From IMG/VR virus record IMGVR_UViG_2541047695_000003: a stretch of 34,489 nt of DNA. The stretch is one strand, 5' to 3'. Source of the DNA: a virus (taxonomy: Duplodnaviria > Heunggongvirae > Uroviricota > Caudoviricetes). The position numbers were made by a program, and so were the translations under genes. Of this stretch, positions 8,815 through 17,100 are shown piece by piece; position 1 is the first letter of the stretch; every line of letters starts with the position of its first letter. The notes beneath the pieces were generated by a model. That model was given only the letters and a program-made list of their open reading frames with translations. It ran no database searches and was not told where the DNA came from.

Positions 8815-10326
8815 ATGTTTAATCTTTTTCGACGCAAAAAGGCGGTAGAAACTCCAGTTAAAACTAATCACCGCCAGCAACAACCAAAAATTTTCATCGA
8901 TAAGCAAGTAGAAAAATTCCAGAAATCTCTGGCGACTCGTAGTTTAGGACTGGTTGGTGATCGTATTGATGGATCACTTCAACAAGACACCATTACAGGA
9001 ACCTTCAATAAGGCTCTCAAATCGAATGGTAAGCGCCTTTATGATCAGGGTCGTACTCTGGCCTTAAACACTTCCGTAGGCAGTCGCTACACGCAATACA
9101 TCACCGATATGGTGGTAGGTACTGGCCTAGATCCGAAGCCGTCAGTTGTTAAACCAAATGGAAAACTTGATAGCGCACTGAATAAGCAGATCGAGAATGC
9201 TTTCTGGAAGTGGGCGCAGAATGCTAAACGCTTCTCTCGCAATGGTCGTTTTAACTTCCGTGAATTGCTGGTAATGGCTGAACGTGAGCGCGTTATGGGT
9301 GGTGAGTGTTTCATCGTTTTAACTAAAGAAAACAATGAGTTAAATGTTTCTATCCTGTCTGCTGATAAATGCGACTGGTCGCTAAACCGTGAAATAAGCA
9401 AAGAGCGTGCGATATATCAAGGTGTGGAGTATGACGTAGAGACGATGAAGCCCGTAGCATACTGGTTTCGTAAAATCAACCTACTGACTCAGACCTACAC
9501 TGGTGATAACTATCGCGTCGATGCTTCGCAAGTATGCCATTATTATCAACCACTTGCGGCTGAATCCCTGCGTGGTGTGACTGACTTCCTGCCAGTGATT
9601 AAGGATATCGCACATCAAGACGCATTCCGCGAAACTGCGATCGTCCAGAAACGTATTGCGGCTAGTTCTATGGGCTTTATCGAACGTCCGAAAGATTCTG
9701 GTGACGATTTTGATACTGGTGAAGAGGATGAACAATATCAAGCGCCGGAAGTAGTACAGGATTTTGCACCTGGTACTATTCAGGAATTACCGGAAGGGGC
9801 AACGATCAAGAGCATCCAGGCGACGCAAAGCGGTGATGATTTCAAATCCTTTAACGATGCGATGTATGGTAGCGTCGCGATGGGCTTAGGCGTGTTTAAA
9901 CAGGGCTTGACTGGTGACACTAGCCAAATAAATTACAGCGCCAGTAGATTCGGTGATTTAATGCAACGACACCGCGTTAAAGCACTGCAAAACAAATTGA
10001 TTGAAACAGTGGTATTGCCAATTTTCGAAGCATATCTACGCCATTATTCCGCGCGTGGTATTGTTCCGATTCGTATTACTGCAATTCCGCATATTATCGA
10101 TAACACTACTATTATTCGTCCTCGTTTTGAATCCGTCGATCCATTTAAAGACGTAAGCGCCGAGATTGCTTTAATTGATAACGGACTTAAATCACGTACT
10201 GCCGTTATTCTTGAACGTGGTGATGATCCTGAAAAAGTATTCTCAGAGATTCAAGCCGAAAAGAGCGCACTAAATATTATCGTTAATGGCGAGGGTGAAG
10301 AAAAAAATTCCCCAGCCGATCCCTAA
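8815..10326 (+). CDS. Portal protein (503 aa), putative
   Basis: Size and position immediately downstream of terminase large subunit and upstream of protease/capsid; AAGGGG SD. Assignment is by synteny; not verified by homology. Confidence 0.7.
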   Translation: MFNLFRRKKAVETPVKTNHRQQQPKIFIDKQVEKFQKSLATRSLGLVGDRIDGSLQQDTITGTFNKALKSNGKRLYDQGRTLALNTSVGSRYTQYITDMVVGTGLDPKPSVVKPNGKLDSALNKQIENAFWKWAQNAKRFSRNGRFNFRELLVMAERERVMGGECFIVLTKENNELNVSILSADKCDWSLNREISKERAIYQGVEYDVETMKPVAYWFRKINLLTQTYTGDNYRVDASQVCHYYQPLAAESLRGVTDFLPVIKDIAHQDAFRETAIVQKRIAASSMGFIERPKDSGDDFDTGEEDEQYQAPEVVQDFAPGTIQELPEGATIKSIQATQSGDDFKSFNDAMYGSVAMGLGVFKQGLTGDTSQINYSASRFGDLMQRHRVKALQNKLIETVVLPIFEAYLRHYSARGIVPIRITAIPHIIDNTTIIRPRFESVDPFKDVSAEIALIDNGLKSRTAVILERGDDPEKVFSEIQAEKSALNIIVNGEGEEKNSPADP

Positions 10327-10371: not shown

Positions 10372-12372
10372 ATGCTTAAATTTCGCCGCGATCTTAACGG
10401 TTACGGTGGAGTTATTAACGAAGGGCATAACGATCAATACGAATTTGAAATTGCTTTCTCCAGTGAACAGCCGTATCAGCGCCAATTCTGGGATGAGCAA
10501 AATCAAGAGATGGTGGTACTAGATGAAATTCTGGTACATACACCGGAAGCGGTTGATCTGTCTCGTCTGAATAATAACGCTCCGTTGCTGTTCAATCATA
10601 ATTTCGATAATCATTTAGGTGTAGTCTGCGACGCTCGAATCGATGCGGATAACGTAGGTCGTGCTCTGGTTAAATTCTCTAAGCATGGCACTTTGGCTAA
10701 TGATATTCGCAATAAAGTCATTGAAGGTACGATGGAAAAAATTTCTGTCGGCTATGACATTAAAGAATATCACATCGATTACGCCAAAGGGCAATTGATT
10801 GTTACTAAGTGGGCGCCCTATGAACTCTCATTTGTCACCGTTCCTGCTGACGATACGGTCGGTTTAAATCGCTCTCTAAATACTATCACAGTTAATTTGG
10901 AGGCTAAACGCGATATGACTAAAGAACAAATTGAAGAAATCAAAGAAGAACAAGAATCCGCTCAGGTTGAAGAAACTCCGGTAGAAGAAATTAAAGAATC
11001 GGAAGTTGAAGAAACTCAAGAGCGCCAAGTTGAAGAGAATAAAGAAGATGAAAATCTCGAAGACGGAAAAGACGCTGAACATCCTGAAAGTGTTGATGAT
11101 GATAGTTCAACTGTTCGGGAAGAAGAAATAAAAGAAGAACGTGAAGCTGCTCCGGTTGAAGAAGAAAAAATCGAAGAAGTGGCTGAACGTTCCGAAGAAG
11201 ACGAATTAGAAATTCGCGAAATTGCACGCGAACTAAATATTGATGACGAAGAATTGAAACGCGCATTGGCAATTAAAGACATGACGCCGGAAGCATTCCG
11301 CACTAAGGCACTAAATAATCTCGTCAATGCTCAACGTAATAACGAACAAATTAAGGACTCTAAAATGGAAAAAACTTTTGACCTGAACAACGTAATTCGC
11401 TCTCTGGTAGATGGTGCTGCTCTGGGTGCTAACGAAGCTGAATATTCCTCTATGGCTGCTGGTGCTGCGATGCAGCGTGGTCGTGCTGCTCGTGGTGGCT
11501 CTGTATTCGTTCCGGCTGCTGCTCTGCGTGCTGCTGCTGATGGTAACACCAAAACTACTCTGACCGCTGTAACTGACGAAAAACTGATGACTGAATCCTA
11601 CATCGAAATGCTGATGCCGGAATCTGTTCTGGGTCGTCTGGGTGTGACTGTTTACAGTGGCTTGAACTCCCCGACCGCTATTCCAAAAATGACCGCTTCC
11701 AGCGTTGACGCTTTCGGCTTCGTTGATGAAAACGGTGCTGCACCGGAAAGCAAAGCTGAATTTGCGAACGTGAAACTGTCTCCGAAAACTTTTGCTGGTG
11801 GCAACCCGATCAGCCGTCAGTCGCTGAAAACCGTTCCGGGCATCGCTACCCTGATCACTGATCACATTAACAAAGCTGTTCGTATCAAACTGGAACAACT
11901 GATTCTGTCTGATAAAGAAAATGCTCGTGGTCCGGCTGGTCTGGTTAAGCAACTGGTAGACGCTAGCCGCGTTACCAAGAAAGCTGCTTTCTCTTATAAA
12001 GACTTCCTGAAAGAAATTGCAGCACTGACCGACGCTGGCGTTCCTGCTCAGGCGATCAAGTTTGCAATGAGCGGTGCAACTGCTGCTGAACTGGAATCTA
12101 CCCTGAAAGATAACGGCGTTTCCGGTTATATCATCGAAAACGGCAAACTGGCTGGTTACGAAGTAGTTACTTCTGGCGTTATCCCGGCAGACCACATCGT
12201 TCTGGGTGACTTCTCCGGTATTACTATCGGTGAGTGGGGAGGTCTGGAACTCGACATGGATCTAACTACATATAGGGATCGTGGTGCGGTAGTGCCTCGT
12301 ATCTTTGTAGATTTGGACTACGTTGTAGCACAGCCGGAAGCCCTGAAAGTTCTTCACATCTCCGCTGAATGA
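10372..12372 (+). CDS. Fused prohead protease (HK97-type, S78-like) - acidic scaffold-like linker - major capsid protein (666 aa)
   Basis: N-terminal ~180 aa carry His (LFNHNFDNHLGVV) and Ser (EKISVGYDIKEY) motifs typical of HK97-family prohead proteases; residues ~190-330 are Glu-rich and coiled-coil-like; C-terminal ~330 aa have capsid-like composition (MEKTFDLNNVIRSL...AAGAAMQRGRAARGG...). Strong terminator follows. Confidence 0.85.
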   Translation: MLKFRRDLNGYGGVINEGHNDQYEFEIAFSSEQPYQRQFWDEQNQEMVVLDEILVHTPEAVDLSRLNNNAPLLFNHNFDNHLGVVCDARIDADNVGRALVKFSKHGTLANDIRNKVIEGTMEKISVGYDIKEYHIDYAKGQLIVTKWAPYELSFVTVPADDTVGLNRSLNTITVNLEAKRDMTKEQIEEIKEEQESAQVEETPVEEIKESEVEETQERQVEENKEDENLEDGKDAEHPESVDDDSSTVREEEIKEEREAAPVEEEKIEEVAERSEEDELEIREIARELNIDDEELKRALAIKDMTPEAFRTKALNNLVNAQRNNEQIKDSKMEKTFDLNNVIRSLVDGAALGANEAEYSSMAAGAAMQRGRAARGGSVFVPAAALRAAADGNTKTTLTAVTDEKLMTESYIEMLMPESVLGRLGVTVYSGLNSPTAIPKMTASSVDAFGFVDENGAAPESKAEFANVKLSPKTFAGGNPISRQSLKTVPGIATLITDHINKAVRIKLEQLILSDKENARGPAGLVKQLVDASRVTKKAAFSYKDFLKEIAALTDAGVPAQAIKFAMSGATAAELESTLKDNGVSGYIIENGKLAGYEVVTSGVIPADHIVLGDFSGITIGEWGGLELDMDLTTYRDRGAVVPRIFVDLDYVVAQPEALKVLHISAE

Positions 12373-12509
12373 ACTCCTGTAGAACCTTCTGAACCTTCCC
12401 CCGATTTGGGGGAAGAAAATCTGATTCCATCTCAGGAAGAAGAAGTTCAAGAGGTTACGGCGAAAGCCACAGTTAAAAAAGAACGTAAGACTAAAGCAAA
12501 ATAATAATT

Positions 12510-12537
12510 AGCCCTGCCTTAATGGTGGGGCTTTTTT
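12510..12537 (+). terminator. Rho-independent terminator after capsid gene
   Basis: GCCC...GGGGC hairpin followed by TTTTTTG at 12531-12537. Confidence 0.6.
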
Positions 12538-12567
12538 GTATGTAAATACTCCATAAAGGGGGTAACT

Positions 12568-12858
12568 ATGTTCAAATTATCAGAATCACAATTATCAAGA
12601 ATGTTTCGAAGTGCTCCTGTATTTTCGGTGGAAGGTGGTAAATCAATTCGTGCTTATCATGAAATTACCACTACCGACGAACAAGGGGTAATTACAGAAT
12701 CAGAATTTCTATTTTGTCGTGAGGGAGACTTAAATCAGGGTGATGTTGTCATTGTAGACGGTGAACGCTTCAAAGTTCAATACGTTAAGCGCAATGGTGA
12801 TAATACTTCTGATTGCTTTATTGCTCGTGCAGGGGGTACACATGCTCGCTACCGTTAA
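12568..12858 (+). CDS. Hypothetical head-tail connector / head completion candidate (96 aa)
   Basis: Small ORF immediately after the capsid gene and terminator; assignment by position only. Confidence 0.6.
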   Translation: MFKLSESQLSRMFRSAPVFSVEGGKSIRAYHEITTTDEQGVITESEFLFCREGDLNQGDVVIVDGERFKVQYVKRNGDNTSDCFIARAGGTHARYR

Positions 12859-13273: not shown

Positions 13274-14107
13274 ATGAATATTACACAAGATAACTTAGAC
13301 ATTTTCACGGGGTCACATGTTGAAGTCTCCGTGTCTACTATGGTGGATAACCAGCCGGACTTTTTCGATCCTGCATTTAGTCCTATCGAGAACATCGCAG
13401 CATTCCCGACGATAACCGAATCCACAGAGATCCAGACGTTAGAAGAGTATGATCAGGACGCTACGGGGAAACTTGCTGGTTATCGTAAACTTGAATCAAC
13501 TACGTTAGTAGTAAACCGTGTTCTGGATGACGAACATCAAGACATGTTGATGAAAGCGGTGAATGATAAAACTCCTTTACGCTTTCGTATGTTCTATGTT
13601 GTGAACTCTGGCTATAGTGCTGCTAACACAGGTTACTACGTCATTTTTGACGCTTATGTCTCGTCACATAAAACAAAATCCGGTGATAACAAAGTTACTA
13701 CAATCGAGTTTAAATTAGAACCTGATGGCGGGATTCTAGATCGCGGTATTGCTACCGAAGGCCGGATCTTACGTCAAGGTGATTTTGGTTTGGGCGCTGG
13801 TGTACATCCATTCACAGGTCCGATTGATAGCGAAGCATTAGCCGGAAACCGTTTCGTAACTTATCAGGGATCGAGCGTATCTAATCCATTTAGTGCTGAT
13901 ACTTCACTAATTCACGTTCAACCTAATGAAGATGGTGGATGGCAATTAACTTGCACCGCTTCCGGCGCACCACGTTTACGAGTTCGCACAGTCCAGAAAG
14001 ACGGTAATTCTGGATGGGTGAAAGTGTATTCCACAGAAGAAAAACCGACACCAGCCGAGATTGAAGCCGTTTCTATCCATGACCGGATCGACTTCGGGGA
14101 ATACTGA
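13274..14107 (+). CDS. Tail-tube-like protein, long paralog (277 aa) with C-terminal extension
   Basis: N-terminal ~160 aa align by eye with ORF 18705-19175 (DIF(T/S)G...I-x3-AAFP...H-x2-(L/M)-x-KA...DG); C-terminal part carries a KPTPAEI motif identical to one inside the tail fibre (14181-17705). Confidence 0.65.
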   Translation: MNITQDNLDIFTGSHVEVSVSTMVDNQPDFFDPAFSPIENIAAFPTITESTEIQTLEEYDQDATGKLAGYRKLESTTLVVNRVLDDEHQDMLMKAVNDKTPLRFRMFYVVNSGYSAANTGYYVIFDAYVSSHKTKSGDNKVTTIEFKLEPDGGILDRGIATEGRILRQGDFGLGAGVHPFTGPIDSEALAGNRFVTYQGSSVSNPFSADTSLIHVQPNEDGGWQLTCTASGAPRLRVRTVQKDGNSGWVKVYSTEEKPTPAEIEAVSIHDRIDFGEY

Positions 14108-14180: not shown

Positions 14181-17100
14181 ATGCAGTCGATCCAATTTAA
14201 ACGAACAAATGTTTCTGGCAAAAAACCAACGCCGGAACAATTACAGGTCGGTGAGGTAGCAATCAACCTTAAAGACCATGTTATTTTTACCAAAGACCGA
14301 GATCATGAAGTAGTTCAAATCTCTGTTTCTCCTGAAACTCACGCGGCACTAGAATCTAAAGTTGATGCTAATAAAAAAGAACTGGATAGCACAATTGCAG
14401 TAAATGACCGCAATATTCACGCTAAAGTAGATGAAATTAAACAAACTACTGATGCAACCATCGCAGCAAATCACGCAGAAATTAACAATAAAGTTGATGT
14501 AATTAAACGCGAAACCGACGCGACAATCGAGGCCAATAAAAATAAAGCTGCTTCCGATCTTGCTGGTGTTAAAGCTGAATTGTCGGATACCATCAACGCT
14601 AATAAAAATGCGGCTGCTGTAGCAACTCAGGAACTGGACACCCGCATCAATAAAAAAGTTGATGATATTAAATCCCGTACCGATGCAACCATCGCAAGCA
14701 ATGACAAAGCAATCAATGACAAAGTTGATTTGATTAAGGCAGAAACTGACCGCACTATCGCAGCAAATCACGCCTATGCGGAAAATCAGTTAACTGACAC
14801 CTACAATAACCTTACTGGTGTGATTGCAGCCAATAAGCAAGAGGCAGCGGATAACGTCGCAGCATTAACCCGTGATGTTGAAGCCAAAAATACAGCAATT
14901 CATAGCAAAGTTGACAATAACAAGTCTTACACTGATTCTGAATTGGCACGTTTAGAAAGCCGTATTGATGCAGCCGATGGATCTGCTGATGGCAAGTACA
15001 TCAAAAAACACGTAAACACTTATACTGATGGTTATTTGCTGTCTAAGACCGCAAACTATTTTGATGATCCAAATGCGCGTAATCTTGATTACTTTGGTGC
15101 ATTCCGCATGAATGACCTGGCGGGTCATATTGCAATGATCTTGCATGTTCCGCATCCATCTGGTGTTAATCATGCTCGTGGCTTCGAGTTCACTTATGGG
15201 TCTAATCCACATGCTACTGTAAGAACATACGGCTATGATGAATTGGGACATTTGGCATATTCTCACCGCATGTATCATGAAGGTGATAAACCTACTCCGG
15301 CTGAAATTGGCGCATATTCGAAAGCAGAAATTGACCGACTGTTCCAGAAGACGCTTAATTTTGGTATCGAGGGTGGTTGGTTTAAACTAGGCACTTTGAC
15401 AATGCCACAACAACACGGTCGCACGGCTAAGATCCGTTTGGTTGGTGGTAACGGTTATAACGTAGGACATAATGGACAAGCCAATATTATCGAATTGGTG
15501 ATTCGATGCGGCAACAATAGCCCGAAAGGTGTTGTATTCAATGCGTATTATACTATTTGGCATCATGAACAACATTTTTGCGCTATTCCAACCGATGGCG
15601 ACAATTACGATCTTTACGCTTACTACGGTGCACATACAGGATTTGTTTTAGCAGAATATCAAGTTTCTTCCGGTGGTGTTTCTTTAAACCTGTTGGATAC
15701 TCCTGAATATCTGGGTGGTGAAAAACCTGTTGCAGATGAAATTTTTGATGCTCTTAACATTTCATCGTTCAATAACTTTAGCAACCGTGGGACGTTAAAT
15801 TTTGCTGGCAATCATCAAGGCCAATATGATATTGAGCATTTAAACGAACAACCGACAAATGCTAAAAAGATGTTGCGTCGCTTCCGTAGTTGTGCACCAG
15901 CTACAATCTGGCATGAGACAGTTGATGATAACGCATATCGTCTTGCTACTGGATACGAAGATACAAATCAGGAATTATTGCTGTCAGCAACATCCGGGTT
16001 ACATGTCAAGAAATTAACATTGGATGGCGGTGTTACTGGAAATTCTGGTATTGATATTCGTCGAGGACCAAACGAATCAAGCCATTTTAATTTCATGGAT
16101 TATCGCACTGGACAAGATGTTCGTAATGGCTGGTTTGGCTTCGGTGATGGTCAGACCAAAGATTTTATTTGGTGGAACGATAACGGTCAAAACTCTATAA
16201 ACCTGATTGAAGATGGTGAATTGCATATTACTGGCGGTAAAGGCCAGAAAATTGTAATGAATAGCGAAGTTGCATTATCTGAAAATGCTCGTTTGGCTGT
16301 CAAAGGTGGTAACTATGGTTTAATCCTTCGTAATGATGGTTCTAGCTTCCATATTCTTACTACCGATTTAAAAGATTCCTTTGGGACGTGGAACACTCGT
16401 AGACCATTTAGTTATGATTTCGCCGAAGGTGGATTAGATCTAGGTGGCACAGCTACCGCACGCTGTTTACATCTGGGAATTGATGGTAGCACCCGCATCG
16501 AAGATAATATGGTGTTTAGATCAGGGTCTCGTCAGTCAATGGACTATATTGAATTAATCCATTGGGGTAACAGTAATACCGCTCGTAACAACGTTTTGAG
16601 TATGAAAGACTCGAAAGGATTCCTTGCTGAATTTGAACGCGTGGGGGGTACTAACGGCGTTAAAACCAGATTCTTTGGCGAAACATTCACTGACGGTACA
16701 TTATACCTAAATCAGATGAATAATAGCTCTGAACGATTCTCTATCAATAACTGGGGAAATTCAGAAGTTGGTCGCGCGGCAGTGATGGAAGTCGGTGATT
16801 CCAAAGGTTATCACTTCTATACTGAACGTAGGACAGATAACAGTTTGATGTTTGATGTTGCTGGCGCTTTTACTGTGCATGGACCTTCCGGGATTACTAT
16901 CAAAAACTCTGCTGGTGCTCGCCACGTCTGGTTTAGAGATGATAGCGATACGGAAAAGGCTGTTATCTGGGCTACAGATGAGGGTATTTTACATATTCGC
17001 AATAACCACGGTGGACAATTTACACATCACTTCCAGGGCGCGATGATTAAACTGGAAGGGCGTGTTCCTTATGCCGCAGATCAAGGACTTATCCGTGGTG

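Follow-up and report, generated by a model that had tools for sequence, protein, structure and literature searches.

RNA viruses commonly use stop-codon read-through to express their genes, and the A1 protein of phage Qbeta is, to our knowledge, the selected example known from bacteria. Read-through in bacteria is rare relative to frameshifting (PMC5373646). In Qbeta, the coat UGA is read as tryptophan in about 1 of 15 cases, which gives ~12 extended copies per particle (PMC8067240). Here we describe a candidate for a comparable arrangement in IMG/VR record IMGVR_UViG_2541047695_000003, a stretch of 34,489 nucleotides from a tailed phage that is called the window at its full length. Its major capsid gene ends at a UGA codon, after which the same frame stays open for 43 sense codons. 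Comparison with related loci suggests that this stop codon is read through at times and that, as a probable result, a small share of the capsid subunits has a charged tail at the C-terminus.

The proposed system would share with Qbeta A1 an E. coli host, a capsid UGA, a minor C-terminally extended subunit and the lack of dedicated trans-acting factors, and the A1 extension also starts with a proline-rich stretch (PMC8067240). Unlike the phage considered here, Qbeta is an RNA phage with a coat fold unrelated to HK97 and a 196-residue extension that includes a globular domain. Furthermore, A1 has been shown as a protein, whereas the extensions discussed here, 27-45 residues that are predicted to be disordered and are attached to an HK97-type prophage protein, are known from sequence alone.

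Among tailed phages, frameshifting produces long forms of capsid or tail proteins in T7 and T3 (10A/10B), Lactobacillus phage A2 and the Listeria phages A118, A500 and PSA (PMC5009743). The window resembles these double-stranded DNA phages in that recoding close to the gene's 3' end would give rise to an extended minor capsid form, and its family would resemble A2 and the three Listeria phages in having recoded long forms of both capsid and tail proteins (PMC5009743). Those phages rely on a -1 or +1 frameshift and often append an immunoglobulin-like (Ig-like) domain, whereas the extension here is in frame 0, short and apparently unstructured. Three relatives (loci L091, L097 and L037) appear to take the frameshift route, as in the T7 10B type.

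Two other types of system invite comparison. The coat protein-readthrough domain (CP-RTD) proteins of luteoviruses and poleroviruses are likewise minor, surface-exposed extended capsid proteins made by reading through a capsid stop, but they are produced by eukaryotic ribosomes, mostly at UAG or UGA-C, and carry large functional domains. In several eukaryotic RNA viruses, read-through is stimulated by stem-loops 7-9 nt after the stop (PMC3159437, PMC9553062). The E. coli genes nudL and pheL resemble the window in that Trp- or Cys-tRNA is in competition with release factor 2 (RF2) at UGA, in pheL in the context UGAA (PMC5373646, PMC10570021). Their read-through has no reported function or conservation and is undetectable with wild-type RF2, whereas the frame described here is conserved across lineages and genes.

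Full-text searches of the open-access literature turned up no tailed phage for which capsid read-through has been described. The novelty would lie in combining the mechanism of Qbeta A1 with the outcome seen in T7 10B, A2 and the Listeria phages, a combination for which no report was found either. A conserved UGA cassette on capsid genes and, in relatives, on tail-tube genes would add a second natural bacterial example, with E. coli, the most tractable host available, and in a prophage family that is common.

The open frame after the capsid stop and its conservation

A preliminary description of the window had reported the TGA, the 43-codon open frame and a TAATAA doublet just before a terminator hairpin, and its coordinates and peptide proved exact (Table 1). 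The extension consists of an acidic, proline-rich first part, TPVEPSEPSPDLGEENLIPSQEEEVQE, and a basic end, VTAKATVKKERKTKAK; its frequency of optimal codons (Fop), 0.63, is at background level. The terminator stands 3' of the extension and not directly after the TGA. Because the extension is in frame 0 and the last capsid codons (CAC ATC TCC GCT GAA) are not slippery, the window does not show what a -1 frameshift would need. That the extension is a typical surface-exposed capsid appendage, as had been suggested, is plausible. The NCBI pipeline leaves the 130-190 nt stretch after the capsid gene unannotated, and a practical implication is that annotation pipelines treat such sequence as empty intergenic space.

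Table 1. Positions of the capsid gene, the candidate read-through signals and the flanking genes in the window
Feature	Position	Strand	Remarks
Portal gene, lambda-type	8815-10326		upstream of capsid gene
Protease-scaffold-capsid fusion gene	10372-12372	+	666 codons; ends TGA
UGA stop and next A, proposed leaky stop	12370-12373	+	
In-frame extension	12373-12501	+	43 sense codons; reads TPVEPSEPSPDLGEENLIPSQEEEVQEVTAKATVKKERKTKAK
Hairpin CUUCCCCC-GAUUU-GGGGGAAG	12395-12415	+	minimum free energy fold, z = -2.4; 22 nt after UGA
Tandem stop TAATAA	12502-12507	+	closes the extension
Terminator-like hairpin and T-run	12510-12538	+	9-pair stem, 6 G-C pairs, then TTTTTT
Small head-tail attachment candidate gene	12568-12858		downstream of capsid gene; sub-threshold Pfam Phage_attach match

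Viewed as a single sequence, the open frame is mildly unusual and not significant on its own. Mononucleotide shuffles of the 129-nt extension leave it open in 5.8% of cases (~1 in 17), and 4.7% of the inter-stop runs on the + strand of the window reach 43 codons. At least 43 open codons also follow the stop of 4 of the 33 large open reading frames (ORFs) in the window, mostly because the next gene shares the frame. The chance of one in eight given earlier was somewhat generous. The significance of the open extension comes from its conservation in relatives, not from the single sequence.

Related loci were drawn from IMG/VR, complete E. coli genomes and public assemblies. Those that share this architecture number 81, on ~50 distinct contigs of E. 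coli, Shigella and E. albertii, and all 81 have TGA with A as the next base, while the flanking codons vary (GAA, GAC or GAG before the stop; ACT or AAT, then CCT, AAC or AGC after it). There are 27 distinct capsid extensions, or 34 haplotypes when the tail-tube versions described below are included, and the frame is open in 34 of 34. Capsid extensions are 27, 28, 32, 33, 42, 43, 44 or 45 codons long and tail-tube extensions 36, 39 or 41; these 11 length classes, with at least eight insertions or deletions (indels), differ by multiples of three throughout. The forward +1 and +2 frames contain 1-7 stops per haplotype, and this varying count indicates that stops arise and vanish where they are unconstrained. 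At the far end, TAATAA closes the extension in 71 loci; 3 loci have TGATAA there, and the other 7 have just one TAA.

All 120 protein clusters among the matches listed end at the TGA, and each covers 88% of the query, in which the tail was included. When a tail profile was compared with ~5.8 billion predicted proteins, no capsid protein with a fused tail was found; the single match was a 33-residue ORF call that starts at TTG. With TGA in every locus and no fused capsid protein, it appears that the TGA is never replaced by a sense codon or, in the sampled DNA, by another stop. Rough odds in the case of no constraint are 0.058 for the open frame, 0.08 for ~63 substitution steps without a stop and at most (1/3)^8, or ~1.5e-4, for the indels; these terms are not fully independent, and the loci have common ancestry and recombine. 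On this comparison, chance is not a credible cause of the conserved open frame. No stop or frameshift, either of which had been named in advance as grounds for rejecting the proposal, occurs within the extension of any relative examined, and the TGA and open frame persist across substitutions, at least eight in-frame indels and three capsid alleles that are 39-44% identical. The earlier proposal of programmed TGA read-through that yields a minor extended capsid species thus gains support from comparison, which is also the only sense in which we use the word programmed.

The same comparisons bear on the possibility that the 28-45 codon frame is translated alone, through re-initiation or from a non-canonical start, to give a free basic peptide. 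The database entry that begins at TTG fits this idea, as does a GTG that overlaps the capsid stop (GTGA) in L091 and L097, where a coupled small ORF is possible. Nevertheless, the preliminary description was right that the extension has no start codon with a ribosome-binding site of its own: the sole start-type codon, TTG at 12406, lacks a Shine-Dalgarno sequence. This TTG is lost in at least four haplotypes, being replaced by TCG (L049, L067 and L080), TTA (L064) or CTA (L085), likewise without a Shine-Dalgarno sequence, and the E. coli group has no conserved ATG, GTG or TTG. Furthermore, the frame is open back to the TGA in every haplotype, variable first codons included, and the fused tails of L036, L038 and L040 place the tail on the capsid protein. 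We give a separate small protein a very small chance of being the explanation. The ATG within GAATGA was also considered as a start; it opens just a 7-codon ORF and is absent where the last capsid codon is GAC or GAG.

Alternatively, the region might be an untranslated 3' element, either an RNA-stability determinant or a small RNA, whose open frame stems from a GAA- and AAA-rich composition and shared ancestry. Local hairpins (z -1.8 to -3.4) with some compensatory changes are in line with this view, as are the lack of a third-position excess among variable sites and an antisense frame that is also open in 23 of 25 haplotypes. Against it, at least eight indels are all multiples of three, no stop has appeared over ~63 substitution steps, synonymous change is concentrated in the GRxPK motif described below, homologous tails elsewhere are fused or reached by frameshifting, and Rfam gives no match. 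Overall, this explanation seems scarcely probable. A false stop created by sequencing or assembly error is effectively refuted by the presence of TGA in ~50 independent assemblies, complete genomes included. Two antisense ORFs (12262-12450 and 12266-12430) were rejected as candidates: they extend into capsid sequence that is replaced in other alleles, cover the 48-nt difference between the long and short forms of the extension and have stops in 2 of 25 haplotypes.

The cassette on other genes and in distant relatives

The arrangement recurs beyond the capsid allele of the window. It accompanies a capsid allele ending ...TVVQKKVD (L041, L043, L049, L063, L067 and L075), which is 39% identical to the window capsid, and one ending ...AVIKAGE (L090), which is 44% identical. 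Both alleles have TGA then A and an in-frame tail of 32-44 codons, in some cases ahead of a different terminator. Similarly, a tail-tube allele that is ~59% identical to the product of window positions 18705-19175 ends ...FTAG TGA, then A, and continues in frame as TNEELPEPEPQPEHEAVVIPEVEEVTAKATAKRSRKAKD before a TAA and a terminator. This tail is homologous to the capsid tail (...VVTAKATAKRSRKAKD). The tail-tube cassette is found in 10 loci (L060-L063, L067, L073 and L098-L101) and in 20-22 complete E. coli genomes. The tail-tube gene of the window itself ends with TAA and a terminator and has no tail. By these comparisons, TGA, tail, tandem stop and terminator together form a unit with the behaviour of a module.

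More distant relatives reach similar tails by another route. The capsid protein of L091 is 40% identical, and its gene ends CTG GAA AAA AAG TCT CTG TGA (cassette at 2479-2560). Here an A_AAA_AAG heptamer is separated by a 6-nt spacer from a hairpin whose first base pairs lie at the UGA. The open -1 frame of this locus, VSVIPPVTDGDGEVSVKKAKKAKAE, ends just ahead of the same terminator family and has a lysine-rich end, KKAKKAKAE. In L097, which is 61% identical to L091, G_GUA_AAG occupies the same position (cassette at ~1470-1560), followed by a 6-nt spacer and the same outer hairpin stem; its -1-frame tail, ...EEVSVKSGRKPKTDN, has the basic end GRKPK. L037 has A_AAA_AAA and a -1-frame tail ending ...KAKAKAETAE, and L034 has the same tail, four codons longer, after a run of five A. 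No canonical heptamer precedes the -1-frame tails of L034 and L035, only five A.

Still other loci carry short Ala/Glu/Lys tails fused directly to the capsid protein (L036, L038 and L040) or no tail (L092, L094 and L095), and among the 150 best family representatives almost all capsid proteins stop within 5-15 residues of where the fold ends. Tails that recoding delivers to some of the subunits thus appear, from the reading frames, to be a recurrent trait of this capsid family. The frameshift and fusion routes of close relatives offer a natural experiment on why the ratio of tailed to untailed subunits matters.

As a separate observation, L085 (3691-4737) and L090 (3486 onward) have a gene of ~345 residues, with a match to the CapR domain, inserted between the capsid cassette and the next head gene. 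This gene lies downstream of another terminator and may be a moron or have a role in defence.

Tail sequence, RNA structure and the proposed mechanism

The tails have a conserved layout that consists of an acidic proline-rich stretch, a V-T-A-K-A-T core and a basic end, which in relatives reads GRPPK, GRPSK or GRKPK. In a post hoc test, the GRxPK end of the relatives showed seven synonymous and three nonsynonymous changes (S=7, N=3), for a ratio of nonsynonymous to synonymous rates (dN/dS) of 0.17 (P=0.007), and by this measure is under purifying selection. Its codon changes are mainly synonymous (GGA/GGT/GGC, CGT/CGC/CGA, CCA/CCG/CCT), also between frame-0 and -1-frame lineages. The window tail does not match the Pfam AT_hook family, and KKVGRPPKAK and KKAGRPSKTAK of the relatives reach 13.4-13.6 bits against a cut-off of 17.4, so that the likeness to AT_hook is one of resemblance only. 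Nucleotide diversity in the extension is 0.096, as high as in coding DNA, and falls to a nearly invariant 0.009 in the next 71 columns up to the next gene. We do not claim strong purifying selection on the whole tail, for which the dN/dS and codon-position signals are weak. The pattern fits a disordered appendage defined by its charge and possibly reflects diversifying pressure.

These data must also be read with a tolerated leak in mind, in which the capsid UGA is incidental and selection just keeps the downstream frame harmless, as a short, hydrophilic and disordered stretch closed by a double stop, the tail having no function of its own. Capsid output is huge, so that even rare read-through gives many molecules. 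Weak amino-acid constraint, the absence of a third-position excess and low-complexity composition are what a harmless frame might look like, and so are the tandem TAATAA and an extension that varies like coding DNA ahead of nearly invariant columns. However, one G-to-A change, to TAA, would end the leak, and none of the 81 loci has it, although TAA closes 30 of the 33 large ORFs of the window (TGA 3, TAG 0). The tolerated leak is also hard to reconcile with the purifying selection on GRxPK, with a cassette acquired or kept on the tail tube and three capsid alleles, and with relatives whose -1 frameshift cassettes appear to make a similar tail or that fuse a short tail to every subunit. We regard it as improbable. 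Fop is 0.87 for the capsid part and 0.77 for the tail tube, compared with 0.51-0.60 for most other genes, so the cassette sits on the two most codon-optimised virion genes. UGA is avoided by highly expressed genes in 14 of 14 bacterial species surveyed, E. coli included (PMC4989110).

We consider it likely that selected read-through of the UGA provides the phage with a minor form of the capsid subunit whose tail is displayed on the outside. Among the stop codons of E. coli, UGA is the leakiest, and Trp-tRNA reads it (PMC10570021, PMC4989110), at 2-4% in K-12 reporters (PMC10570021). Most ribosomes would terminate at the capsid UGA-A through RF2, while a small fraction would decode it as an amino acid, the likeliest being tryptophan brought in by near-cognate Trp-tRNA, and translate the 43 further codons up to TAATAA. 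The junction in the extended protein would read ...VLHISAE-X-TPVEPSEPSPDLGEENLIPSQEEEVQEVTAK, and the product would be a minor capsid subunit with a flexible 44-residue tail that is first acidic and proline-rich and ends lysine-rich. The C-terminus of the proteins in HK97-fold shells faces outward, close to the capsomer axis (PMC11664910), and that of the P22 coat protein is exterior and tolerates fusions (PMC9962691). By analogy, the tail would be expected on the exterior of the head, at <1 to ~15 copies per ~415-subunit particle if a T=7 shell of 415 subunits and read-through of ~0.1-4% are assumed. The presence of the same tail on a tail-tube protein argues for an external role and not for internal contact with DNA. 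By analogy again, the likeliest function of the tail might be weak adhesion to polyanionic surfaces, which has been proposed for the frameshift-made Ig-like extensions of other phages. The occurrence and efficiency of read-through, the amino acid inserted, the outside location and the function are what we infer.

Several points weigh against this interpretation. The extended protein itself is known here only as a prediction from DNA. Across the whole extension dN/dS is 0.62 (P=0.05), which means weak amino-acid constraint, and variable sites by codon position number 9/12/13, compared with 53/38/133 in the capsid gene, so that a third-position excess is missing. The GRxPK test was picked after the data had been viewed, and the window variant, KKERKTKAK, lacks the motif. 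The invariance of TGA-A is statistically weak by itself, as ~1/4-1/3 of nearby sites vary, and the related loci are not fully independent because the cassette spreads by recombination. Natural E. coli have an efficient RF2 variant, with which read-through of nudL and pheL was undetectable and UGAA terminated rapidly (PMC5373646). Thus, real hosts may read through this stop far less often than K-12 reporters do, perhaps in only a fraction of a percent of cases. Finally, we found no read-through stimulator that all forms share, the hairpins of the long and short forms being different in kind and distance.

The long-form hairpin has an 8-bp stem that is invariant in all long-form haplotypes. Short-form relatives have a different hairpin of 11-12 bp, 10-11 nt after the UGA, in which most substitutions preserve pairing and one double change is compensatory. 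A 9-nt insertion in L090 falls in the loop of this hairpin, and hand pairing of the L089 stem gives one U-C mismatch. A spacing of 10-22 nt exceeds the 7-9 nt that is typical of eukaryotic viral stimulators (PMC3159437). A long-range helix, UCCUG/CAGGA, predicted in the long form of the window and starting 2 nt after the stop was considered as a stimulator and rejected, since alignment inspection showed that it is lost in the TN and NN variants.

An in-frame UGA followed by a hairpin also recalls selenocysteine insertion. However, the hairpins are not conserved in sequence, loop or distance between the long and short forms, where no element like a selenocysteine insertion sequence (SECIS) was found, and no Rfam family matched in the window at gathering thresholds. 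The loops (GAUUU and GAAA) are also unlike the SECIS of E. coli. Selenocysteine at this UGA is effectively refuted.

The selected read-through favoured here could be part of something larger: a portable recoding cassette, grafted by tailed phages onto their most abundant virion proteins, those of the head and the tail tube, that interconverts with -1 frameshifting and fusion, is stimulated in cis by its hairpins and produces a number of tails that tracks RF2 and Trp-tRNA in the host. This extended scheme is doubtful. We know of no read-through stimulator in bacteria; if the scheme were true, this would be the first that acts in cis, and the virion surface, with its AT-hook-like basic tails, would depend on host physiology.

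The capsid gene, the prophage and its neighbouring genes

Pfam matches place a Peptidase_S78 domain at residues 40-162 of the capsid fusion protein (E 6e-10) and a Phage_capsid domain at residues 407-662 (E 2e-26). The nearest solved structure to the capsid protein is 8gta_A, which is named a major capsid protein (E 1e-24). The capsid part begins near Met332 (11365), and a glutamate-rich, acidic, scaffold-like linker separates it from the protease part. Judged by these matches, the gene encodes an S78 prohead protease and an HK97-type major capsid protein as one fused chain. An AlphaFold model made from a 12-sequence alignment had a predicted local distance difference test (pLDDT) score of 31 and was unusable. 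Over the last 47 capsid codons (12229-12369) Fop falls from 0.87 to 0.64. This drop suggests that a patch joined to the tail cassette came to form the 3' end of the gene through recombination.

The window represents an Escherichia prophage of the siphovirus type, with a structural module of that type which includes terminase, tail-tube, tape-measure and fibre genes. Homologous proteins from E. coli, Shigella and E. albertii bear the name phage major capsid protein, and the capsid region is present in 54 of 5,426 complete E. coli genomes (~1%). A megablast search of the capsid region against 50,697 phage records gave no match, nor did two scans of a collection of species-representative genomes. 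The best protein match among the phage records is 43% identical, and none of the sequenced isolates is a near relative, which leaves no characterised phage to serve as a proxy. The G+C content of the window, 41.7%, is low for E. coli. Chi sequences (GCTGGTGG) occur five times on the + strand and not on the - strand, and no phage-encoded tRNA gene was found in the window.

There are additional observations on the tail genes. A tail-fibre gene of 1174 residues (14181-17705) sits between two tail-tube-like genes; the observation also takes in window positions 17744-18650. The distal part of the fibre gene has 79-94% DNA identity to the distal subunit of the T4-like long tail fibre (gp37), and the gene that follows the tail-tube gene in relatives has the annotation receptor-recognising protein Gp38. 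The fibre region looks like a host-range module common to temperate siphoviruses and virulent T-even phages. The second tail-tube-like gene (13274-14107) encodes 277 residues, of which the N-terminal 154 match the PHROG family of the 18705-19175 product, followed by ~120 additional residues at the C-terminus. Only three large ORFs of the window end at TGA, this gene among them, and its downstream frame closes after 3 codons.

Just before the tape-measure gene, two small genes (19258-19566 and 19596-19937) have a layout like that of the lambda G/GT tail-chaperone pair. The ORF at 19596-19937 is in the -1 frame, and this frame is open only from 19551. The sole plausible -1 slip site of this pair is G_GTA_AAG at 19558-19566, right before the TAA.

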